NCBI RefSeq assembly: GCF_016903815.1 | Contig: NZ_CP069972.1 | Length of the DNA stretch: 64,000 nucleotides | Source: Escherichia coli | Lineage (GTDB): Bacteria; Pseudomonadota; Gammaproteobacteria; Enterobacterales; Enterobacteriaceae | Strand: one strand, 5' to 3' | Shown: positions 248-35,270 of the stretch, piece by piece | How positions within the stretch are numbered: the stretch's first letter is position 1 | How the letters are laid out: every line of letters starts with the position of its first letter | Made by a program: the position numbers and the translations under genes | Notes under the pieces: model-generated | Told to the model about the DNA's origin: nothing | Seen by the model: only the letters and a program-made list of their open reading frames with translations | The model's database searches: none

Positions 248-1450
248 ATGATGAAGAAAAATCATATTACCCGCACCATCATTGCATCTGCTGTATTATT
301 TTCCTTTAACGCTGCAGCAGCGACGTCATATTTTGAAGCGCGTAACGATGCAATGGGTGGCACCGGGGTAGCATCTTCCCATTATGGTGTGGCACCTCTG
401 GCAAACCCGGCTTTACTGACAAAGCACAACAGCAATGATGATTTCAGCCTTCTTCTGCCGTCTGTTGGGGCACAAGTTGCTGATCCTGATGATGTATCAA
501 ATAAAGCTGATGATGTTAAAGATGACTGGGATTTGTTTGACAGTGCTGTAGATAACCAGCATGGCGTACAACAGGCAGCGGCAAATCTTAAACATCGTCT
601 GCAGGAATTCCGCAATATCAATGCAGATGCTCAGGTAGGTGTATCAGCTGTAGCAGCCATGGCAAATGACACTCTGCCGTTTGCCCTTATGGTCAAGTCT
701 TACGGAACTGTCAGCGTAAACGGAAAAGTAAACGATGCAGACCTGGATTATCTGGACAAAGTTGCCAATGGAACAATTACCGACGTCGATAAGAATGCCC
801 TGACCTCACGCGCATTCGGGCGTGCAGCTGTAATTACCGACGTCGGAATTTCATTTGCCAAAGAACTGGAAACGGCCGGACAAAAATGGTCTCTTGGCGT
901 CACACCAAAATATCAGCGTGTGGACCTGTTTAACTACAACGTAACGGTTCGTGATTACGACAAAGACGATTTTGACGGTGACAAGTACCACAACACGAAA
1001 AACGGATTCAACGCCGATATTGGTGCTTATACAGACCTGAATGACAACTGGACTGTCGGTCTTGTTGCCCAGAACATCATTCCACGCAGTATTGATACTA
1101 AAGTCGTCAATGGCTTTAAAGAAACCTTCAAAGTTCGTCCACAGGCAACCGCCGGTGTATCCTGGCATAATGACCTGTTTACCACTGCTCTTGACGTTGA
1201 TCTGACTCCTGCCAGTGGCTTCACTTCTGACAGCAAACGTCAGTTTGCAAGTGTTGGTGCTGAATTTAACGCATGGAAATGGGCGCAATTGCGTGCCGGT
1301 TATCGTCAGAACATGGCATCAAACTCCGGAAGCGCCTTCACCGCTGGCGTTGGTATCTCTCCATTTGACGTCGTACATATCGATGTTTCCGGCCTGGTAG
1401 GAACTGACCACGATTACGGTGCAATGGCACAACTTCAGTTCACTTTCTGA
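248..1450 (+). CDS. traF: TraF-like secreted/outer-membrane T4BSS protein (400 aa)
   Basis: AGGA before ATG; N-terminal signal peptide (MMKKNHITRTIIASAVLFSFNAAAA); C-terminus ...AQLQFTF ends in aromatic residue as in OM beta-barrels; symbol by position in IncI1 tra operon. Confidence 0.6.
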   Translation: MMKKNHITRTIIASAVLFSFNAAAATSYFEARNDAMGGTGVASSHYGVAPLANPALLTKHNSNDDFSLLLPSVGAQVADPDDVSNKADDVKDDWDLFDSAVDNQHGVQQAAANLKHRLQEFRNINADAQVGVSAVAAMANDTLPFALMVKSYGTVSVNGKVNDADLDYLDKVANGTITDVDKNALTSRAFGRAAVITDVGISFAKELETAGQKWSLGVTPKYQRVDLFNYNVTVRDYDKDDFDGDKYHNTKNGFNADIGAYTDLNDNWTVGLVAQNIIPRSIDTKVVNGFKETFKVRPQATAGVSWHNDLFTTALDVDLTPASGFTSDSKRQFASVGAEFNAWKWAQLRAGYRQNMASNSGSAFTAGVGISPFDVVHIDVSGLVGTDHDYGAMAQLQFTF

Positions 1451-3761: not shown

Positions 3762-4906
3762 ATATTCCTGATGAGTTTGGTCTTTTTCCGTTTCAGCGTT
3801 TCACTGCAGATGAACTACGGCATTTCTTTGTCTGGTGTGCCTCACATAAAGTCAGTGATGTGGATCTGACCGGCGGGTCACCTGTATCTGTCAGTCGCTT
3901 TGGCCGACGGGTGCGTTGTTCCAGTGCAACGTTACCAACCACACTCATGTCCTCCCTGATTGATGAACTGTTCGGTCGGGAAGTCATTCCCCGCGTTCTG
4001 GCAGGCAATCCGGTTGACAGGACGATACAGATTAACGGGGATGCATCCGGGCGCTATGGTCTTAAACGCGGAGAACGCATCCGGTTACGCTCTCACCTCA
4101 TTCAGGGCACATCTGGTGCGGAGGAGAAAGCAATCTCAATAACCATGCGTGTCATCCCGACAGAAATACCGGACATTCTCTCCATGAACATTGAACCAGA
4201 CCTGCTTGAAGCAATGGTCTGCAAAAGCGGTCTGGGATTTGTATGTGGTGAAACCGGGTCAGGAAAATCAACGCTGTGTTCAGCACTGTACCGTTACATT
4301 ATGGACAATTTCCCCGACGCCAAAATCGTGACATATGAAGACCCGGTGGAATATATCCTGGGAAATGAAAACGATCTGCTCCCACCGCATCAGGCAGAAA
4401 TCGGGCGTGATGTGGTCAGTTTTGCTGCCGGACTGCGTTCTGCTGTACGACGTAATCCCGAAATTATCGGTGTTGGTGAGATCAGGGATAACGAAACCGC
4501 CGACGCAGCGGTACAGGCAGGCAACACCGGGCATTACTGCCTGAGCACCATGCATACGAAATCTCCTGGTGAAACGCTGGCACGTCTTCTTGGGCTGTTT
4601 CCCCCTGTCATCAGGGATTCGATGGCCTGGGCTGTCCTGTCACTGTTGCAGTTCATTCTGGTTCAGGTTCTGGTCAGAACAAATGACGGTGGTCGTAAAG
4701 CCGTCCGGGAATATATCGTCATTAACGATGAGCTTCGCGACAATCTTTCCGGAATGCCGCATGCAGAGTGGGGGCATCACATTGATGCCATAATCCGGCA
4801 GGAGAAGCGCCGTATCCGGGACCAGATTCTGGAAATGTATATCCGGAATGAAGTTGACCGAAGAGAAGCGATTCTTTTTATCCCGCCAGGGGAGTTACGG
4901 TCATGA
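3758..4906 (+). CDS. traJ: TraJ, VirB11/DotB/PilT-like secretion ATPase (382 aa)
   Basis: AGGAGG RBS; Walker A GETGSGKST; size and position match IncI1 TraJ as I recall it. Confidence 0.85.
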   Translation: MNIPDEFGLFPFQRFTADELRHFFVWCASHKVSDVDLTGGSPVSVSRFGRRVRCSSATLPTTLMSSLIDELFGREVIPRVLAGNPVDRTIQINGDASGRYGLKRGERIRLRSHLIQGTSGAEEKAISITMRVIPTEIPDILSMNIEPDLLEAMVCKSGLGFVCGETGSGKSTLCSALYRYIMDNFPDAKIVTYEDPVEYILGNENDLLPPHQAEIGRDVVSFAAGLRSAVRRNPEIIGVGEIRDNETADAAVQAGNTGHYCLSTMHTKSPGETLARLLGLFPPVIRDSMAWAVLSLLQFILVQVLVRTNDGGRKAVREYIVINDELRDNLSGMPHAEWGHHIDAIIRQEKRRIRDQILEMYIRNEVDRREAILFIPPGELRS

Positions 4907-5193
4907 AAAGAGAAGGTTTCTGGCGATATGCAACACCGCCAGTCAACATCCAGGGCGTACCTCTGCCGTTCACCATGATTTATCTGTTTATATGCCCCTT
5001 TCCCTCCAAAACAACCTTCTGGATTTGCACCGGCATCATTTTATTTTTCGTTATTCTCGACCGTTCAGGCTGGACTGTCAGGACTATCTGTACACGCATT
5101 TTCAGCATTCTGAGAGGGGCCATCGCCTCCGGTCGTCCATGGTGGTATCGCCACCATACGGAATCACCACGAGACTGGACTGGCCTCGATTAA
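4903..5193 (+). CDS. traK: TraK-like small membrane protein (96 aa)
   Basis: GGGAG RBS; start overlaps traJ stop; two hydrophobic segments; operon position. Confidence 0.55.
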   Translation: MKREGFWRYATPPVNIQGVPLPFTMIYLFICPFPSKTTFWICTGIILFFVILDRSGWTVRTICTRIFSILRGAIASGRPWWYRHHTESPRDWTGLD

Positions 5194-5207
5194 ATTCTGG
5201 AGTCTTT

Positions 5208-5759
5208 ATGTCAGGTAAAAAAACTATCGTTACTCTGCTCCGGGTATCGCTACTGGCATGCCCGTTACTGTTCACGACACCATCGTTTGCAATGATCGAC
5301 ACGCCATCCGTGAAGGTCGGCTTTTCTCCTGAAGGAAGCGCATCCGCTCTGGTGCTTGACACAATCAACAGTGCGGAAAGCTCCATCAGGATGATGGCAT
5401 ATTCCTTCACCGACCCGGATGTAATGCATGCGCTGGCAAAAGCGAAAAAACGCGGAGTGGACGTCCGTATTGTTGTTGATGACAAGGGGAATACGAACCG
5501 GGCAAGTCAGGAAGCGATGAAATATATCAACCTGCTGGACATTCCTCTCCGGACTGTAGATGCCTTCCCCATCCATCACGACAAAGTCATCATTGTTGAC
5601 GGAAACACGGTTGAAACTGGCTCCTATAACTTCTCTCGTGCTGCTGCACGCAAGAATTCAGAGAATGTCGTTGTGCTCAAGAATATGCCGGATGTAGCCG
5701 CACAATATCTTGAACACTGGCAGGATCGCTGGAATAAGGGTACAGACTGGAAACCCTGA
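5208..5759 (+). CDS. nuc: Phospholipase-D-family (HKD) endonuclease, Nuc-like, secreted (183 aa)
   Basis: ATG 5208 in frame with track ORF 4848..5759; signal peptide; HKD motif HHDKVIIVDGNTVETGSYNFS; resembles plasmid Nuc (pKM101-type). Confidence 0.85.
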   Translation: MSGKKTIVTLLRVSLLACPLLFTTPSFAMIDTPSVKVGFSPEGSASALVLDTINSAESSIRMMAYSFTDPDVMHALAKAKKRGVDVRIVVDDKGNTNRASQEAMKYINLLDIPLRTVDAFPIHHDKVIIVDGNTVETGSYNFSRAAARKNSENVVVLKNMPDVAAQYLEHWQDRWNKGTDWKP

Positions 5760-5789
5760 CAAACATTTCTCCCCCGATTTTCTATCCCC

Positions 5790-5822
5790 CCAGCCACCCC
5801 CGGCTTCCGGCGGTGGTTTTTT
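5790..5822 (+). terminator. Rho-independent terminator-like hairpin after nuc
   Basis: CCACCCCCGG/CCGGCGGTGG imperfect inverted repeat followed by T7 run. Confidence 0.45.
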
Positions 5823-5848
5823 TCCGTCTTTTTTCAGGAGAAGCACTC

Positions 5849-8800
5849 ATGCCGTCTGTATCCCGCTACCGCACCTGGCTTGCCGTGCCTGCAGATGAAA
5901 TAGAAGATCTCAAAAAAGCACATCCCCCGATGAACGGGCACACGCCCGTCATCTGGGACAAGGAGCACAAACTCTGGTTCGCCCGCCCGGGGGCGGACCT
6001 GTCCAGGCTGGACCGCTGGCTGCCCCGGCCACAGGACGTCTCCATGAACGGCAGTGATCCGGTCACCGAGTTTGCCCAGGTTCTGGAGAATGCCGGACTG
6101 GTTCTGAAAGAACTGCCGGTCATGGACGGGAAAATCCACCGTGTCCCGACCGCCGATGACAAAAAAGGACAAAAAAGTGGCGCATATCGCGGATTCCTGG
6201 ACGGCAGACCTGCCGGCTGGTACAGGGATTATCGCAGCGCGGATGATTCGCCGATCACCTGGACCTTCTCCGGCGGAGAACAGACAGATCCCCGCGCAAG
6301 ACTCCACCTGAAAGCGCATTCAATGCAACGCAGGGAGGACGCGGAGCGGGAACTGAAAGCACAGTACAACCGACAGGCCGCGTATGCCCGCCGCTATGTC
6401 AACAAATGGCCGCAGGCCACAGCACATGAATACCTGACCCGGAAAGGCATTCAGGCTGCACCGGGGGTGCGGGTAAACAACAAAAATGAACTGGTTATTC
6501 CCTTCAGTAACCGTAACGGCGCGATACGCTCTTACCAGCGTATTCCGGTCACCGGGGGGAAGGATGCCCGCATCCTGAAAGATTCAGAGAAAACCGGTAA
6601 CTGGTTTGCGCTGGGCACACCGCGCAACGGTCAGCCGGTACTGTTTGCCGAGGGCTATGCCACTGCGGCCTCCCTGCACGAAGCCACGGGCCTTCCGGTA
6701 CTGATGACGGTGGATGGAGGCAACATGATTGCCGTTGCCGAAAATGCCCGGCAAAAGTGGACGCAAAGCCCCTTTATCTTCTGTGCCGACAACGATCATG
6801 CAATCCGGGTTAACAAAGGTATCGTCAGTGCAACAAAAGCCGCAGAACTGACAGGAGGAACGGTCATCTTTCCTGCGTTCACCGATGCCGAAAAAGCGCA
6901 GGGGCTGACCGATTTCAATGACCTGGACGCAAGCCGGGGACGGGCCGCTTTTCAGCATGTCATCAACGCCCAGTTAGAACACATCGGGGTTTCCACCCCC
7001 AACAGTAACACCCCGGAAATCCGCGAGGCACTGGTGATCGGCAACCTCGTTTTTACACCGGTCCACACTGAGGAAAAAACCATGACTCCGACAGAATATC
7101 CTGAAACATCACCCGATACAGGGCACAGCCATGACCAGGGACCTTCTCTGCCGTCCGCCACGCAGCAGGAACAACCAGCTGCTTCCAGCAGTAACATTGC
7201 TGATGAAACACAGTCATTTACCAGTCACGCCACTGAAAATAACGGCAAAGATGAGCGGCACGCTGATAACGTTCAGGCGCAAACGGAAAGCTCTGTAGTT
7301 CAGGACTCCCCTGCAGAATCACCGGCGTCCCCGGAAAGTACAACGGCATCTGCCCCTGATGAACCCGCTCATCCGGCGGAACCTCCGGAAAAAGTTGTCT
7401 CGGTGGCCACAGATAAAGACTGGCGTGAATTTGAAGCCGAACTGTCACAACCGGAAAAAAACGAGTCACAACAGGAATCCGGCACTTCACCTGAAATACC
7501 GGCCCCTGCTGCCGCCCCCGCATCCCCTGAAGACAGTCCCTCATCTGAAACCATGAATGAATCAGCCGAGCCATCACCTTCCCCTGATGCAGTCAAAGAG
7601 GAAATGACCGTGATGACGGAGCCTGATGACAAACAAAGCACCGGAATATCCCCGGATACTCCCCGGGAAGAGGCGGTCAACCATGTAACTGAAGACATTC
7701 CCCTTCAGCCAGAGCCGTTCCTTCCTGAGTCAGATGGCCCCGAAGAATACGAAAACTACAGCGCATATCAGGAGCTGATGAACAATGAAAATCCTGAGCA
7801 TCTGCAGGAAAACAGTGATATGCCGTCGCAACCGGACACAGACCACGTTCAGGCAGATGAGTCAGAACTTCAGGCCACAACAGATACTGCAGAACCGGCT
7901 GTCCGGGATGAACCCACTCCACAGCAACCTGTTCAGAGCACATCACCTTCTGATAATACTTCATCGTTTCTCGACAAAGCGCGTGGCTTTTTTACGCGTA
8001 AAAAAACGGATTCACAGGCACATGAGAACAGTGATCCCACGCCCTCAGCGGAAACCACGACGACTCCACCGATACCTGACAGTATTGTCTACGCCCCGGA
8101 ACGTTCTGATGCACCGATATCGCTCAACATGGACGAAATTCTTAAAGAGCTTGACTGGGAAAAACGAGCAGACAGAACCGTCCTGTACAAACTGGATGGC
8201 AAACCTGCCTTCATTGACCGGGTAAACCGGCTGGAAATGGTCAACGGTGCCAGCAATGACGATCGCAGCGTTCTGGCCGCACTTGCTGTGGCCACCAAAT
8301 TTTATGGGGGCGTCATAGAGCTGACGGGCAGTGATGCCTTTAAGCAAAAAGCAATGCAGTTGATTATCGAGCACAACATCGATGTCCGGATGAAATTGCC
8401 AGATCAACGGGCTGAACTAGAAAAATTACGCAAGGAAATGGCTGTCAGTAAGGATGCAGTTGTCACCCATCAGCCAACACCGGAACTTAACCGGAATACC
8501 CCAGAACAACCGGCTGTCCCTGACCCCGTTCAGGAAAAAGAAGCCACACAATCCCCGGCGTCCCCTGTTGCCCCTGAAGCATCAACCGTCAGCACCGCCT
8601 CTGCACCATCACCGGCTGAACCAGGCAAAACGGCAGATGTGGCACCAGACGAAGAACCACCAGGAAAACTTCGCCCGGGAGAGAGCGTGACTGCCGTACT
8701 GCACAATTTTGGTCGTGCTGAATATGCACCCGGCAAAGGAGAGAGTTTCTTTGTTGAGCTTAAAAACCGCAGTGGCAGCAAACTCTACTGGGGGGAACAA

Positions 8801-9616
8801 CTGGAAAGTCTGGTCAAAAACCATCAGAAAGGTGACGTGGTGACACTGACACTTCAGAACCGCGAACAATTCATCCTCCCGGGAGAGCAAAAAGCACGTT
8901 TCCGGAATAAGTGGTCCATGGAGTCAGTTACCAACGGGATCTCGGTATCACATGATAATCCGGATAAAGGTCAGCGTATTCAGGCGATTCCGGTCGAAAC
9001 CTTTATGAAAGTGGCTGCGCAAATCAGCCAGGGGTGGCCCGAAGAGATGAAAGCGTTACGTATGCCAGAAAACGTCGGCTCACATCTGTTTATCGGTGAA
9101 GACCGACATCCGGTCTCCGCGCCACAGAACGCAAATCAGGTAACAGAAATAACCAGCGCAGCCCCTGACAAGCTGACACCTGTTCTGGGATCAGTGGATA
9201 AGGATACGCGTGAACTCAACCTGCTACTTGTCCAGAGTGCCGATGAACATCTGCAGGGTGTGGTCCGGCTGAACGGCACATTGTATCCGGCACTGGCCAC
9301 CCCATCAGCCGACAACAGTCAGCTGGTTATCAATGCGCTGACCGACAAAGGTTTACGCTTTGCAGGTTATGGTGAAGCGGTAAACCACGATGCTGACAGC
9401 ACGAATCGCCCCGCACCGGAGCTTATGCAGTTTCATCTGAAAACCCGGGAAGAACCGCTTTTTGCTGCTGTCTACACGCCGGAAAAACAACCTGATGCGT
9501 TGTACCGGAACCTGGGCTTCGAGCAGTCATGGCAGCAGTGGTCCAACAGCCAAAAGCCGGAGGACAGGCAGGAAAAAACTCTGCATCAGGATCTCTCCCA
9601 CAGCCCCGGCCGATGA
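5849..9616 (+). CDS. sogL: SogL-type conjugative DNA primase (1255 aa) with TOPRIM domain and long acidic P/E/S/T-rich linker
   Basis: AGGAG RBS before ATG 5849 (13 codons inside track ORF); TOPRIM motifs LFAEGY...CADNDH; 1255 aa equals recalled SogL length; low-complexity middle third. Confidence 0.85.
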   Translation: MPSVSRYRTWLAVPADEIEDLKKAHPPMNGHTPVIWDKEHKLWFARPGADLSRLDRWLPRPQDVSMNGSDPVTEFAQVLENAGLVLKELPVMDGKIHRVPTADDKKGQKSGAYRGFLDGRPAGWYRDYRSADDSPITWTFSGGEQTDPRARLHLKAHSMQRREDAERELKAQYNRQAAYARRYVNKWPQATAHEYLTRKGIQAAPGVRVNNKNELVIPFSNRNGAIRSYQRIPVTGGKDARILKDSEKTGNWFALGTPRNGQPVLFAEGYATAASLHEATGLPVLMTVDGGNMIAVAENARQKWTQSPFIFCADNDHAIRVNKGIVSATKAAELTGGTVIFPAFTDAEKAQGLTDFNDLDASRGRAAFQHVINAQLEHIGVSTPNSNTPEIREALVIGNLVFTPVHTEEKTMTPTEYPETSPDTGHSHDQGPSLPSATQQEQPAASSSNIADETQSFTSHATENNGKDERHADNVQAQTESSVVQDSPAESPASPESTTASAPDEPAHPAEPPEKVVSVATDKDWREFEAELSQPEKNESQQESGTSPEIPAPAAAPASPEDSPSSETMNESAEPSPSPDAVKEEMTVMTEPDDKQSTGISPDTPREEAVNHVTEDIPLQPEPFLPESDGPEEYENYSAYQELMNNENPEHLQENSDMPSQPDTDHVQADESELQATTDTAEPAVRDEPTPQQPVQSTSPSDNTSSFLDKARGFFTRKKTDSQAHENSDPTPSAETTTTPPIPDSIVYAPERSDAPISLNMDEILKELDWEKRADRTVLYKLDGKPAFIDRVNRLEMVNGASNDDRSVLAALAVATKFYGGVIELTGSDAFKQKAMQLIIEHNIDVRMKLPDQRAELEKLRKEMAVSKDAVVTHQPTPELNRNTPEQPAVPDPVQEKEATQSPASPVAPEASTVSTASAPSPAEPGKTADVAPDEEPPGKLRPGESVTAVLHNFGRAEYAPGKGESFFVELKNRSGSKLYWGEQLESLVKNHQKGDVVTLTLQNREQFILPGEQKARFRNKWSMESVTNGISVSHDNPDKGQRIQAIPVETFMKVAAQISQGWPEEMKALRMPENVGSHLFIGEDRHPVSAPQNANQVTEITSAAPDKLTPVLGSVDKDTRELNLLLVQSADEHLQGVVRLNGTLYPALATPSADNSQLVINALTDKGLRFAGYGEAVNHDADSTNRPAPELMQFHLKTREEPLFAAVYTPEKQPDALYRNLGFEQSWQQWSNSQKPEDRQEKTLHQDLSHSPGR

Positions 9617-9633
9617 GCCGGTAAGGAAGCCAT

Positions 9634-9981
9634 ATGAACATGCATAAGTCTCTGGTTGCCGTGCTCGGCCTTATCCTGATTTCATCCACGGCAAGTGCTG
9701 CAACCTGTCGTGCGGGTAGCGCGGCACAGGCCGGTAGTAATACAGGATATGAGCGAGCACGTGCAGCTGCGGATGCATGGTCACAACGTGAAAACGATGT
9801 TTCCTCATCCCTGCAGTCCTGTCTGTCACGAATCAAAAAAATCAGCATAAACCTCCCCCAGTTCCCCAGCCTTGACGACATTCTGTCGCAGCTGGAAAAC
9901 CAGGTCTGCGACGCGGTCGTGGACAAGGTGAATGAAAAGCTGCCGGGGAATATTGATCCCTGGAAGGACTACAACCTATGA
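9634..9981 (+). CDS. traL: TraL-like exported protein (115 aa)
   Basis: AGGAAG RBS; signal peptide; operon position. Confidence 0.55.
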   Translation: MNMHKSLVAVLGLILISSTASAATCRAGSAAQAGSNTGYERARAAADAWSQRENDVSSSLQSCLSRIKKISINLPQFPSLDDILSQLENQVCDAVVDKVNEKLPGNIDPWKDYNL

Positions 9982-32539: not shown

Positions 32540-32572
32540 GGCCGCGCCGGATTCTGGCGCGGCCTTTTTTTT
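32540..32572. terminator. Bidirectional terminator between convergent trbC and nikB
   Basis: GGCCGCGCC-loop-GGCGCGGCC then T8. Confidence 0.65.
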
Positions 32573-35270
32573 AACCTGGAGAAGGCGGTTCCCAGCGTTT
32601 ATCCTGCTCCGGCGGAGGCAGTGATGCGTCATCGTTGCTGTTCGCCGCGATATAATCGCGGTAGTAGCGTTCACTTCCTTCACGGTGATGATCCACGTCC
32701 GGTCGCGTAATCCTGTAGTCTTCGTGACCGGTACGGCCTGTCACATTATGCCAGGCAACCATTTCAGCAAAGACCTGGTTAAATTGTTTGTCGTTTCCTT
32801 CTGGTTCAAAACCCATGCGTGGATCACGCCCGAATAATACCGGTGCAATCAAATCCAGTTTATCTGCCAGCGCATTGCGGTCATGGTGATTACGGAAAAC
32901 AACCCTGTCACCATAATCCGTACAGACAAACTCTCCCGTCCGACGATCACGGAAACGAACACTCCCGTTCTTCTGCAAACGGGCCTCGAGATCACCGGTA
33001 TTACCGTATACCGGCGTTCCGCCCGGTTCACAAAGCACGACACAGCGGTCTGTTGTCGTTGTGCGTGACTTATCTTTACGGCGATCGCGATAATCCCAGC
33101 CTCTCAGCTGCGATACAGCAGCCCTGTCTCCCTGAGCAGCCTGAATTTCGACCCACTGACGGTAAGAGGGTGGATACCACTTCCCGTCAGCAATAAGTTT
33201 CTGCCGCTCATTCCTGATGTCTTCTTTCAGCCTGATCAATGCCTGCATTCGCTGAACTTCTGCAATGTGATAATGCAGCTTACGTAATGCCGGATCATCG
33301 TACTGCGCACGAATGTGTGACTTCCGCAGACGGCATGCCTGATGAATTTCCCGACAACGTTCCCCATAACGCAGATCTGGTTTACGCCATTGTTCACGCC
33401 ATGCCAGATAGCGGGCACGCAGGTCAGCACGGGCCTCAGCTCTGGCTTCACGTCGCTGCCGGCGCAGCATTGGGTCACGTTTACTGCTGACCCCGTACCT
33501 GTCACTGACAGCCAGCTCCGGGTTATAGCGACTTTCAGGTTGCACCCTGTCAAACAAATCTGCTGGGGCACTCACAAAAGGTCCGGCCTGTGGCTCTGCA
33601 CGCCCCAGAGTCAGATCAGGATGAATGCTGCTGGCCTTCACCGGCGTTTGCTCATGATTAAAGGCATCAACGACAACAAGCCCGTGATGTTGTTTCTGTA
33701 GCATCAGTCCCTGTTGTGCAAACAACTCATGACAACGCTGCCAGGTAAACTCACCCTGTGTGATCATTTCTTCAATCTGAGGGCTACAATGGCTGATGCT
33801 GTATCCCCACAGACTTTCTTTGTCAGAAAACAGTTCGCGTTTGATAGCCCCCTGCGGCCCCGTACCTGTACGCATACGGTGCCATTCTTTATCGGTCGCA
33901 GGACAGCTCTCCATACGACGACCACGGAAGCGTTCTGTTGGCGTAACCTGGAGGAAAATATCTGTTGGTACAGGCTGCCAGCCACCATCGAGTTGATTCA
34001 CATTGTCGAGCGTCAGCAGTGACCATACGCTGTCAGCACGAACGGGAGTCTGGTTATGATCATAACCGTCACAGATAACCAGGTGACCATGCTGAACACG
34101 CATCCATAATCCCGCTTCAGCCAGTGTGCGGTGAATAGCCTGGCAGTTTTCCAGCCGTCCTTCCCGTGCCATTTCCGGCAGACGTTCTCCAAGATGACGA
34201 CAGGCATACTGCTGCAGACTTTCTGTTTCAGCGATTTTTTCCGGGCGAACATCAGCTGCAATGAAGTCCGGATTATAGCGTCCTGGTGCTTCCACCTGGC
34301 TGAAAATGTCTTTTGGTACTGGCGTGTAGTCACCCATTTTTTTCATGAGTTTTTCTGCACACCAGGAGGGACCAAACGAGTCAAGCTGTACACCTTCCCT
34401 GTTGCGATCCCAGCCATCCATCACCAGAAATTTTCCGTCCATCTGAGACAGGTACAGACCATCTTCCGCAAGACGACGATGCAGGGATAACCAGTCATTT
34501 ACAGGTTCACTGCGTAAACCAGCGACCGCTGTCTGCGCGACATACTCGCGAAAAGTTTGTTTTTTTCCGCGTGTCCAAGCGTTCTGGCGATCACGTTCAA
34601 CGGCAGTTTTGCGAACGATACGATTTCCCGGCGCATGGACCCAGCAACCGTTATCCGGAGCAAAACCATGCTTCAGTTCAAGCTCACGGCAGGCACGACT
34701 GAGTTTTTCCTGACTCCATGATAATCGGTTCAGATAACCCGTTTCAGGGTGTACCCGGTTAACAGCCACATGGACGTGCAGATTATCTGTATCAGTATGC
34801 ACGGCAGAGACATACTGATGGTCGGCAAGGCCGAGTGATTTCAGCGTATGACGTACACTGTCATAAATCTGTTCCGGACGCGGGCTTTCATGTGACTGCC
34901 AGGAAAGGATGTAGTGAAAAACAGGATCAGTGTCATCTTTTGCATAGTGTGCCTGCCGGGCAATGTACTCCATATCTGCAGCGGCAGTTTCAAGAGAAGT
35001 ACAGTTATGAAAGCAGGTGACACCATAAAAGTTGACCCATTCGCAGCCGTCCTTCATGACATCAACCAGCGCCACGAATGACTCATTTCGAAGACGTGTC
35101 GCATAATCAACAAGGCGACTGAAACGGCTTCGGTGCGGTTGTTCAGCCTGCGAAGAAGAAGATAAATCCAGTTCCTCATCGGTCATGTCATCCCGGACAG
35201 AGACGTAGGATACCAGGTCTTCGAACGAAGACTTGCCGTCCCTTCTCTTTTTCGGAATGACTGCATTCAC
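32571..35270 (-). CDS. nikB: NikB, MobP-type relaxase (899 aa)
   Basis: Histidine triad ...NLHVHVAVNRVHPETGY; 899 aa; immediately downstream of nikA/oriT. Confidence 0.9.
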   Translation of the reverse strand: MNAVIPKKRRDGKSSFEDLVSYVSVRDDMTDEELDLSSSSQAEQPHRSRFSRLVDYATRLRNESFVALVDVMKDGCEWVNFYGVTCFHNCTSLETAAADMEYIARQAHYAKDDTDPVFHYILSWQSHESPRPEQIYDSVRHTLKSLGLADHQYVSAVHTDTDNLHVHVAVNRVHPETGYLNRLSWSQEKLSRACRELELKHGFAPDNGCWVHAPGNRIVRKTAVERDRQNAWTRGKKQTFREYVAQTAVAGLRSEPVNDWLSLHRRLAEDGLYLSQMDGKFLVMDGWDRNREGVQLDSFGPSWCAEKLMKKMGDYTPVPKDIFSQVEAPGRYNPDFIAADVRPEKIAETESLQQYACRHLGERLPEMAREGRLENCQAIHRTLAEAGLWMRVQHGHLVICDGYDHNQTPVRADSVWSLLTLDNVNQLDGGWQPVPTDIFLQVTPTERFRGRRMESCPATDKEWHRMRTGTGPQGAIKRELFSDKESLWGYSISHCSPQIEEMITQGEFTWQRCHELFAQQGLMLQKQHHGLVVVDAFNHEQTPVKASSIHPDLTLGRAEPQAGPFVSAPADLFDRVQPESRYNPELAVSDRYGVSSKRDPMLRRQRREARAEARADLRARYLAWREQWRKPDLRYGERCREIHQACRLRKSHIRAQYDDPALRKLHYHIAEVQRMQALIRLKEDIRNERQKLIADGKWYPPSYRQWVEIQAAQGDRAAVSQLRGWDYRDRRKDKSRTTTTDRCVVLCEPGGTPVYGNTGDLEARLQKNGSVRFRDRRTGEFVCTDYGDRVVFRNHHDRNALADKLDLIAPVLFGRDPRMGFEPEGNDKQFNQVFAEMVAWHNVTGRTGHEDYRITRPDVDHHREGSERYYRDYIAANSNDDASLPPPEQDKRWEPPSPG

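Follow-up and report, generated by a model that had tools for sequence, protein, structure and literature searches.

The sog gene of IncI1 plasmids gives rise to two polypeptides from one reading frame, SogL (1,255 aa) and SogS (844 aa), both of which are transported to recipient cells (PMC6112013). Export into the recipient proceeds via the I1 transfer system (PMC6112013, PMC8406263, PMC12365149) and only the long form, SogL, has primase activity (PMC6112013). Re-annotation of the plasmid pESBL placed SogS in the last 2532 of the 3765 nt of the gene (PMC4288162), and the sogS locus is used in IncI1 plasmid MLST (PMC2887853). The literature is split on whether sog is essential for transfer: deletion of sog in R64 is cited as reducing transfer only ∼10-fold (PMC6112013), whereas transposon sequencing of pESBL scored SogS as 'required for transfer' (1.00) and SogL as 0.26 non-essential and 0.74 required (PMC4288162). 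Taken at the level of scores per product, the pESBL data suggest that the gene can dispense with the region specific to the primase.

We analyzed a window of 64,000 nt from Escherichia coli (contig NZ_CP069972.1). The open reading frame at its positions 5849–9616 had been assigned to IncI1 sog at first pass, and we confirm this assignment by near-identity to R64 SogL and by the surrounding IncI1 tra cluster and plasmid backbone. We are highly confident that the sequence represents the sog gene of a conjugative IncI1 plasmid, in which one frame served by two ribosome-binding sites yields SogL and SogS. The protein shares 1254 of 1255 residues with R64 SogL, with no gaps and a single change (A1177T), and the RefSeq annotation of identical plasmids carries a matching CDS. 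In an identical plasmid, as in R64, the gene order is traJ-traK-nuc-sog-traL-traM(DotI)-traN, where nuc encodes a PLD-family nuclease, so that sog lies between nuc and traL in the IncI1 transfer region. Of 1838 plasmid records with a hit, 1761 are conjugative, and those inspected are typed IncI1/MOBP/MPF_I. It has been known for decades that sog makes two products and that both are exported; the present allele is a one-residue variant of the reference. Apparent sizes of the two Sog products have been reported as about 210 and 160 kDa; the calculated mass of SogL is 138.0 kDa (pI 4.95), and the difference between SogL and SogS is calculated as 45.6 kDa. The hairpin that precedes the gene (Table 1) has a predicted RNA folding energy of –17.2 kcal/mol (z –4.24), and none of 200 shuffled sequences was as stable. 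No sigma-70-like promoter was found in a scan of positions 5500–9900, so nothing points to separate transcription of sogS.

Table 1. Features of the sog locus. Coordinates are positions in the 64,000-nt window; residues are numbered as in SogL.
Feature	Coordinates	Strand	Details and basis
Intrinsic-terminator-like hairpin	5792..5823	+	GC-rich, followed by a U7 run; nuc-sog spacer, directly upstream of the sog ribosome-binding site
Shine-Dalgarno sequence of SogL, AGGAGA	5836..5841	+	7 nt 5' of the ATG; duplex with the 16S 3' end, –7.4 kcal/mol
sogL CDS	5849..9616	+	ATG 5849, stop 9614-9616, 1255 aa; identity to R64 SogL, RefSeq CDS
DUF5710 N-terminal domain, aa 8-59	5870..6025	+	Pfam PF18974, 34.9 bits versus cutoff 26.5
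DnaG/T7-type primase catalytic region with TOPRIM, aa 148-381	6290..6991	+	
Toprim, aa 266-365; AEGYATA, aa 267-273	6647-6667 (AEGYATA)	+	
Acidic P/E/S/T-rich low-complexity linker, aa 385-755	7001..8113	+	About 344-371 aa; composition
Internal Shine-Dalgarno sequence, GAGGA	7070..7074	+	Codons Glu408-Glu409; –12..–8, 7 nt before ATG 7082
sogS CDS, start Met412	7082..9616	+	844 aa + stop, calculated 92.4 kDa; published length, annotation, conservation
Basic/amphipathic island SFLDKARGFFTRKKT, aa 706-720	7964..8008	+	15 residues inside the linker, pI 11.1
Folded LPD7 region, aa 756-868	8114..8452	+	Pfam match aa 775-862, PF18821, 52.9 bits versus cutoff 27
Second linker, P/A/E/T-rich, aa 869-942	8453..8674	+	74 residues; composition
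C-terminal domain 'Sog-C', aa 943-1255	8675..9613	+	Beta-rich, ∼310 residues

The N-terminal third had been described as primase-like, and it does contain a DnaG/T7-type TOPRIM region at aa 148–381; both the primase catalytic fold and the conserved acidic Toprim residues are present. Pfam gathering scores were missed for this region (23.5 bits versus 27.2 for Toprim_3 and 14.7 versus 23.1 for Toprim), a Toprim or Toprim_3 match at E ≤ 0.001 was obtained for just 9 of the 44 family members, and a sequence search of all PDB chains with the whole protein and with an N-terminal profile returned no match. Sequence identity to the DnaG, T7 gp4 and T4 gp61 primases is 12–17%. Zinc-binding and helicase-interaction domains were not detected in Sog, which, unlike these enzymes, begins with DUF5710 (found in 27 of the 44 family members) and continues into a long, export-related C-terminal half.

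The middle third is acidic and of low complexity, as the first-pass annotation had stated, but the length of ∼500 residues given there has to be reduced to about 344–371 (aa ∼385–755), of which 344 aa fall within SogS. An objective window criterion places the acidic tract at aa 401–758. Over aa 385–755, D+E make up 21% of residues, K+R 5%, P+E+S+T 49% and hydrophobic residues 15% (pI 4.05). Tandem Repeats Finder detected no repeat array in the linker, reporting just a trivial 20-nt repeat at 6158–6177; hence the low complexity is compositional, not repetitive. Sequence and length of the linker are hypervariable among homologues. Within it, the island SFLDKARGFFTRKKT is one of the few recognizably conserved stretches and aligns with SLFSRLRRFLTG in IncK2/Z Sog. 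In the 39 homologues whose linker spans 60 aa or more, its length ranges from 68 to 746 aa while the net charge is acidic in all 39 (median D+E 0.17, median K+R 0.05). The acidic tract probably acts as a flexible spacer that is constrained in composition.

Downstream of the linker, LPD7 was found in 41 of the 44 family members. A comparison of Sog aa 750–869 with NikB, the relaxase of the same plasmid (window positions 32571–35270, minus strand), gave a best BLASTP E-value of 0.85, and the sole related signal for the LPD7 region was NCBIfam TraI_MobP at 19.8 bits versus a cutoff of 250. We therefore rejected the reading of this region as the middle or C-terminal domain of a NikB-like MOBP relaxase, since BLASTP detected no similarity to NikB. 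Sog-C, the uncharacterized domain that ends the protein and now has a defined extent, matched no family in a Pfam search. Its predicted fold (AF2 pLDDT 87.7) comprises a five-stranded barrel (aa ∼946–1026) and a larger beta-rich domain, and structural matches to OB-fold/SSB domains were weak. The most conserved part is aa 1128–1217 (positions 9230–9499). Among 1.84e9 proteins we found 95 representatives of Sog-C, and the domain is C-terminal in all full-length members examined.

Sog-C also occurs outside the sog family. The C-terminal ∼290 aa of MobA from MOBQ4 plasmids (e.g. pEA22_6, 4091 bp) are homologous to it, with 46% identity over Sog aa 947–1231 and a patch that is 67–93% identical; at the DNA level, a 268-nt patch (Sog aa 1137–1226) is 82% identical to sog. 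The N-terminal enzyme of these proteins is a MobA/MobL relaxase rather than a primase, and they have neither LPD7 nor the acidic linker. R64drd11 mobilizes MOBQ4 plasmids most efficiently, and a 'low homology to SogL primases' is already in print (PMC6856555). We tentatively propose that Sog-C (aa 943–1255) could be a portable access module for I-type (Dot/Icm-like) conjugation machines; it might dock to the coupling complex, or it might bind ssDNA through its tandem barrels and escort the transferred strand. On this proposal, small MOBQ4 plasmids would have acquired Sog-C and kept part of it (aa ∼1128–1217) homogenized with IncI1 sog to exploit IncI helpers, and the internal start present throughout the family would supply the primase-free module in excess. 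The sharing of Sog-C with MOBQ4 relaxases offers a testable hypothesis on substrate recognition by I-type conjugation systems, which disseminate genes for ESBLs and carbapenemases.

In Legionella, DotM binds effector peptides rich in Glu, and the acidic tract of Sog could likewise be a multivalent Glu-rich secretion signal for a DotM-like part of the I-type coupling complex, with Sog-C as the docking module. Net acidity is retained while linker sequence and length drift freely, sog homologues always lie within a Dot/Icm-like cluster (with IcmT, DotI and DotH as neighbors), and Sog-C is common to the MOBQ4 relaxases that R64 mobilizes best. However, those relaxases carry Sog-C with no acidic linker or LPD7, so recognition of this module cannot depend on the linker, and acidity is equally explicable as a means of keeping the linker soluble or off DNA. 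We consider this role of the acidic tract rather unlikely.

The first-pass annotation had left the internal start to a scan of in-frame ATG and GTG codons with Shine-Dalgarno sequences. Such a scan, read together with the published length of 844 aa, places the start at Met412: subtraction of 844 from 1255 leaves 411 codons upstream, hence codon 412 (position 7082), where GAGGA stands 7 nt upstream. We conclude that the SogS start can be pinned to ATG 7082, in agreement with published length, annotation and conservation in distant homologues. In an alignment of 44 family proteins, 25 of the 37 residues in the column of Met412 are Met, 7 are Val and 2 are Leu. By Met fraction the column ranks fifth among 1059 well-populated ones; seven columns exceed 50% Met, and this is the sole one outside a folded domain. 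Glu occupies position –4 of the aligned start in 26 of the 44 proteins. For nine loci the DNA was available, seven of them distant (24–32% identity to the present Sog in the C-terminal domain). All nine have ATG or GTG as the aligned codon (the three Val residues are all encoded by GTG), and a GAGG/AGGA core stands in equal register to it in seven; the remaining two, IncK2/Z Sog (GAGAAG, –2.7 kcal/mol) and locus L011 (GAAGAA), have a weak Shine-Dalgarno sequence. In most homologues the aligned start comes directly after the end of the primase domain. Because the start keeps this place at the end of the primase domain throughout the family, the two-product design is probably ancestral and not a peculiarity of IncI1. 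RNA structure around the internal start is unremarkable (z –0.40).

By Shine-Dalgarno energy Met412 (–6.1 kcal/mol) is not the top in-frame start. A short polypeptide beginning elsewhere in the frame, most plausibly at Met293 (ATG 6725), could draw on the gene's strongest match (GGAGG with a 5-nt spacer, –9.3 kcal/mol), and Val947, Met1067 and Met644 likewise equal or exceed the score of Met412. Yet initiation at Met293 would give 963 aa instead of the published 844 and would fall within the Toprim fold; the GGAGG in front of it is simply a pair of Gly codons, and at the same position eight other loci have no comparable Shine-Dalgarno sequence (energies +0.6 to –3.4). All four codons were rejected as starts, as the combination of start codon and Shine-Dalgarno sequence is not conserved in homologues, and we regard a start other than Met412 as highly improbable. 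Alternatively, SogS might arise with no internal initiation, if a protease cut SogL in its disordered linker. This would suit the protease sensitivity typical of long acidic disordered linkers but is scarcely credible given that SogS is described as being translated from the same frame (PMC6112013), that a start codon and Shine-Dalgarno sequence, neither of which cleavage needs, are kept in fixed register at the domain edge although the surrounding linker is unalignable, and that Tn-seq scores suggest tolerance of insertions in sogL upstream of SogS while SogS is needed (PMC4288162).

Initiation at Met412 provides a rule at the sequence level for annotating SogS. PGAP omits SogS and names the long protein just 'LPD7 domain-containing' or 'DUF5710 domain-containing', and the R64 copy in RefSeq, after re-annotation, has no sogS entry.

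Overall, we suggest that initiation at ATG 5849 would produce SogL, consisting of DUF5710, the TOPRIM primase, the acidic linker, LPD7, the second linker and the beta-rich C-terminal domain, and that initiation at ATG 7082, served by the GAGGA of Glu408-Glu409, would produce SogS. As the latter start lies 27 residues into the acidic tract, SogS would retain most of the linker and all downstream parts but not the primase. In published accounts, both proteins enter the recipient via the conjugative type IV secretion system of the I type (Dot/Icm-like), SogL there primes synthesis of the complementary strand on the single strand that arrives, and transfer needs the portion common to the two. The transfer-related activity may reside in the half formed by LPD7 and Sog-C and might consist of binding to ssDNA, of docking to the secretion machinery, or of a combination of the two.

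Compared with SogL and SogS of R64 and ColIb-P9, the present locus shows no substantive difference: it is essentially the same gene, with the same length, neighbors and internal start for an 844-aa product. The Sog protein of IncK2/Z and the Pri proteins of IncM pCTX-M3 and IncL pOXA-48 share the DUF5710-primase-acidic linker-LPD7-linker-Sog-C architecture, occupy an equivalent position in the MPF_I cluster and keep the aligned internal Met. IncK2/Z Sog (1353 aa) is 57% identical overall to the present protein, its additional ∼100 aa lie wholly in the linker, and its locus differs by the lack of nuc upstream and by a weaker Shine-Dalgarno sequence at the internal start. For pCTX-M3, Pri has a reported length of 1070 aa, and a putative product of 689 aa would imply initiation at codon 382. 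In RP4, the TraC primase likewise exists as two products of one frame and has the EGYATA motif in common with Sog. Both TraC products keep primase activity because the catalytic domain lies in their common part, whereas in Sog this activity belongs to the long form only. Like Sog, TraC1/TraC2 of RP4 (IncP) represent a plasmid-encoded Toprim primase that is transferred in conjugation (PMC5512222).

The gene at window 5849..9616 (+) is IncI1 sog by every testable feature, from sequence identity and gene context to the primase fold with its motif and the internal start. Its frame runs uninterrupted for 1255 codons and a stop. It extends mechanically up to a GTG at 5813; ATG 5849 is the codon preceded by AGGAGA (5836-5841, 7-nt spacer) and is also the start that RefSeq annotates on identical plasmids. 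The product is identical to the R64 protein at NC_005014 91573-95340 (SogL) at 1254 of 1255 residues, and the gene order is traJ, traK, nuc (phospholipase-D-family nuclease), sog, traL, traM (DotI/IcmL family), traN. This identity and these IncI1 neighbours therefore bear out the first-pass recognition of sog, a textbook gene already known. By megablast, sog is present in 1838 plasmid records (1761 typed conjugative), at ≥99% identity in 289 and at 95-99% in 1052; the sog-bearing plasmids inspected are IncI1/B/O, MOBP and MPF_I.

Several observations concern the records and the neighbourhood. Current automatic annotation in the RefSeq/GenBank records of the matches uses the names 'DNA primase TraC', 'LPD7 domain-containing protein' or 'DUF5710 domain-containing protein' for the gene, and SogS is listed in none of them; in the re-annotated R64 RefSeq record the sogL and sogS names are gone. 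A clinical E. coli IncI1 plasmid (CP088685.1 8398-13478) carries the identical sog allele in two pieces separated by an IS3-family insertion of ~1.3 kb, and is a natural sog knockout. Upstream, the longest ORF covering nuc (window 4848-5759, 303 aa from 4848) far exceeds the annotated 183-aa PLD-family nuclease (start ~5208). The small traK ORF (4903-5193), labelled only 'hypothetical protein' by PGAP, lies in another frame and overlaps this spurious extension. In the 89-nt spacer between nuc and sog, window 5792-5835 contains a strong GC hairpin (-17.2 kcal/mol, z -4.24) with a U7 and then a U6 run behind it, and ends only about a dozen bases upstream of the sog Shine-Dalgarno (SD) sequence. 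This element looks like a candidate intrinsic terminator or attenuator, although sog is regarded as co-transcribed with the tra genes.

Because the Toprim_3 match is sub-threshold, the TOPRIM assignment was tested independently of Pfam. Residues 148-381 match the PHROG DNA-primase profile (E 1.3e-58), and AEGYATA (aa 267-273) with acidic D316, D355 and D358 is invariant in nine homologues (40-75% identical). The proposed assignment of the N-terminal third as a DnaG-type primase therefore holds. No PDB chain was detectable by sequence search with Sog.

Domain layout of SogL (amino-acid positions)
Feature	Position	Evidence	Remark
DUF5710	8-59	Pfam, 34.9 bits	above threshold
Toprim_3	266-365	Pfam, 23.5 bits	below gathering score 27.2
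Folded LPD7 region	756-868		follows first linker
LPD7	775-862	Pfam, 52.9 bits	above threshold
Second linker	869-942		P/A/E-rich
Folded C-terminal domain (Sog-C)	943-1255		no Pfam family

The first-pass annotation had left the internal start unplaced and suggested scanning in-frame start codons for SD sequences. Published lengths are 1,255 aa for SogL and 844 aa for SogS (PMC6112013), and a pESBL re-annotation assigns to SogS the 3'-terminal 2532 nt of the 3765-nt SogL frame (PMC4288162); the start therefore falls after 411 codons, at Met412 (window 7082-7084). The scan did reveal an ATG at 7082 preceded by GAGGA (7070-7074, 7 nt from the ATG, made of codons Glu408-Glu409; sequence before Met412, cacactGAGGAaaaaaccATG), but other candidates score as well or better: Met293 (GGAGG) reaches -9.3 kcal/mol against -6.1 for Met412, and Val947, Met1067 and Met644 at least equal Met412. 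Thus, Met412 could not have been picked from SD strength alone, and comparative data decide.

We gathered the Sog family via the C-terminal domain, which has 95 representatives among 1.84 billion proteins, and built an alignment of 44 long members. Of the 37 residues in the Met412 column, 25 are Met, 7 Val and 2 Leu, and 26 sequences have Glu at -4. By Met fraction this column comes fifth among the 1059 that are well populated. Seven columns exceed 50% Met, and this is the only one outside a folded domain. DNA was taken for seven distant members whose C-terminal domains are 24-32% identical to the window Sog. All seven loci lie in Dot/Icm-like MPF_I clusters, with TraL-like, DotI and DotH genes downstream (7/7) and either IcmT/TraK (five) or a shufflon/pilV gene (the other two) upstream. 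With IncK2/Z and the window added, the codon aligned to Met412 is ATG or GTG in 9/9 loci, all three Val being GTG. A GAGG/AGGA core stands at the same distance in seven of the nine; the two exceptions are degenerate (GAGAAG, GAAGAA). In most homologues the aligned start comes immediately after the final primase-domain helix. pCTX-M3 Pri (1070 aa), for which a putative 689-aa product is reported (PMC6112013), fits the rule with a start at codon 382. At the rival positions Met293, Val947, Met1067 and Met644, none of the other loci couples a start codon to an SD of similar strength; the GGAGG ahead of Met293 results from two adjacent Gly codons specific to IncI1. Overall, the comparative data argue strongly that SogS begins at window 7082 and that making two products is an ancestral trait of the family.

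We found no promoter consensus inside sog for a separate sogS transcript, and the RNA around the internal start shows no unusual folding. SogL has a calculated mass of 138.0 kDa and SogS one of 92.4 kDa. The classical apparent sizes are reportedly ~210 and 160 kDa; abnormally slow migration of both products would be in keeping with the acidic, proline-rich tract they have in common.

That tract, the first linker, extends from aa ~385-401 to 755-758 by sliding-window composition and segment statistics (401-758 by an objective window criterion). Its acidic, low-complexity character holds as first described (P+E+S+T 49%, D+E 21%, K+R 5%, hydrophobic 13-15%, pI 4.05), whereas the length of ~500 residues was too large: it measures 344 aa from Met412 or 371 aa from aa 385, ~30% of the protein, in agreement with its first description as the middle third. 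No tandem DNA repeats were found in it. In 39 homologues the linker is anywhere between 68 and 746 aa long and can hardly be aligned, yet all 39 are net acidic (D+E 0.11-0.24, K+R 0.02-0.10); its composition is conserved, and its sequence is not. A basic amphipathic 15-residue island, SFLDKARGFFTRKKT (aa 706-720, window 7964-8008), interrupts the acidic tract and is among the few stretches still recognisable in IncK2/Z Sog, there as SLFSRLRRFLTG.

The LPD7 region, second linker and Sog-C were absent from the first description. BLASTP found no similarity between the LPD7 region and the plasmid's own relaxase NikB. Modelling of aa 935-1255 with AlphaFold2 on 24 sequences gave a confident prediction (pLDDT 87.7, pTM 0.64), in which a barrel of five strands (aa ~946-1026) precedes a larger domain rich in beta structure. 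Foldseek returned no match at E ≤ 0.001 for this model; its top list consists mostly of weak RPA, POT1, Teb1, HIN and SSB OB-folds (E 0.006-0.06), compatible with single-stranded DNA binding without establishing it. Sog-C is a rare domain, and all full-length members examined carry it at the C-terminus. Among the 44 members it is accompanied by LPD7 (41/44), DUF5710 (27/44) or a MobA/MobL relaxase (3/44). Four of the 44 Sog-like proteins (L012 1501-5925 and three others, alignment A2) also show resolvase-type HTH_7 and HTH_23 matches. A Pantoea cypripedii protein (P0014, 545 aa) appears to be a stand-alone combination of LPD7, a linker and Sog-C (59% identical in Sog-C) that lacks both the primase and the long acidic tract. 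Either its gene is a natural, separate counterpart of SogS, or its start may have been called wrongly. The size of its contig (1.4 Mb) suggests a chromosome or megaplasmid. A tentative and rather doubtful idea is that Sog-C is a portable module giving access to I-type machines.

Both SogL and SogS pass from donor to recipient (PMC6112013), SogL in hundreds of copies and independently of DNA (PMC8406263, PMC12365149). SogL primes DNA synthesis after transfer (PMC6112013, PMC5512222), and coating of the transferred strand has been proposed for Sog proteins (PMC6112013). Transposon sequencing of pESBL gave SogS a score of 1.00 as 'required for transfer' and SogL one of 0.74 (0.26 non-essential) (PMC4288162). 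These scores, rather than insertion positions, suggest that transfer can do without the primase-only region and needs the part common to both products. Published accounts differ on the importance of sog: its deletion from R64 is cited as lowering transfer only ~ten-fold (PMC6112013). Gene identity, primase fold, domain layout and the conserved ATG/GTG with its SD at the primase-domain edge are established from sequence. The linker would serve as a flexible acidic spacer, and LPD7 with Sog-C would carry a transfer-related function. Our additions are modest: an exact SogS coordinate, its family-wide conservation, a corrected linker length, a fuller domain map and a delimited Sog-C.

The relaxase carriers of Sog-C are MOBQ4 MobA proteins of ~4-kb enterobacterial plasmids. 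The MobA C-terminus of MOBQ4 has already been recorded as having 'low homology to SogL primases', so the relationship is not new, and the best helper for these plasmids is R64drd11, an MPF_I plasmid (PMC6856555). In pEA22_6 (NZ_CP117634.1, 4091 bp), mobA spans the record origin, is missing from the gene table and ends in the Sog-C module. Its 715-aa product is 46% identical to Sog aa 947-1231, rising to 67-93% over aa 1128-1217. A 268-nt patch (window 9257-9524) is 82% identical in DNA, against 27-47% at the protein level for the rest of the module, a pattern suggesting that the patch has undergone gene conversion with the helper plasmid or is locally under very strong constraint. In IncK2/Z plasmids the only sog segment still aligned by megablast is the part matching this patch. 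Their loci (L003, L004, L005, about 1295-1359) have no nuc between traK/icmT and sog, and their Sog is 1353 aa, all added length lying in the acidic linker. RP4 TraC, like Sog, is an exported plasmid primase; it too is made in two in-frame forms, both of which, unlike those of Sog, retain the primase.
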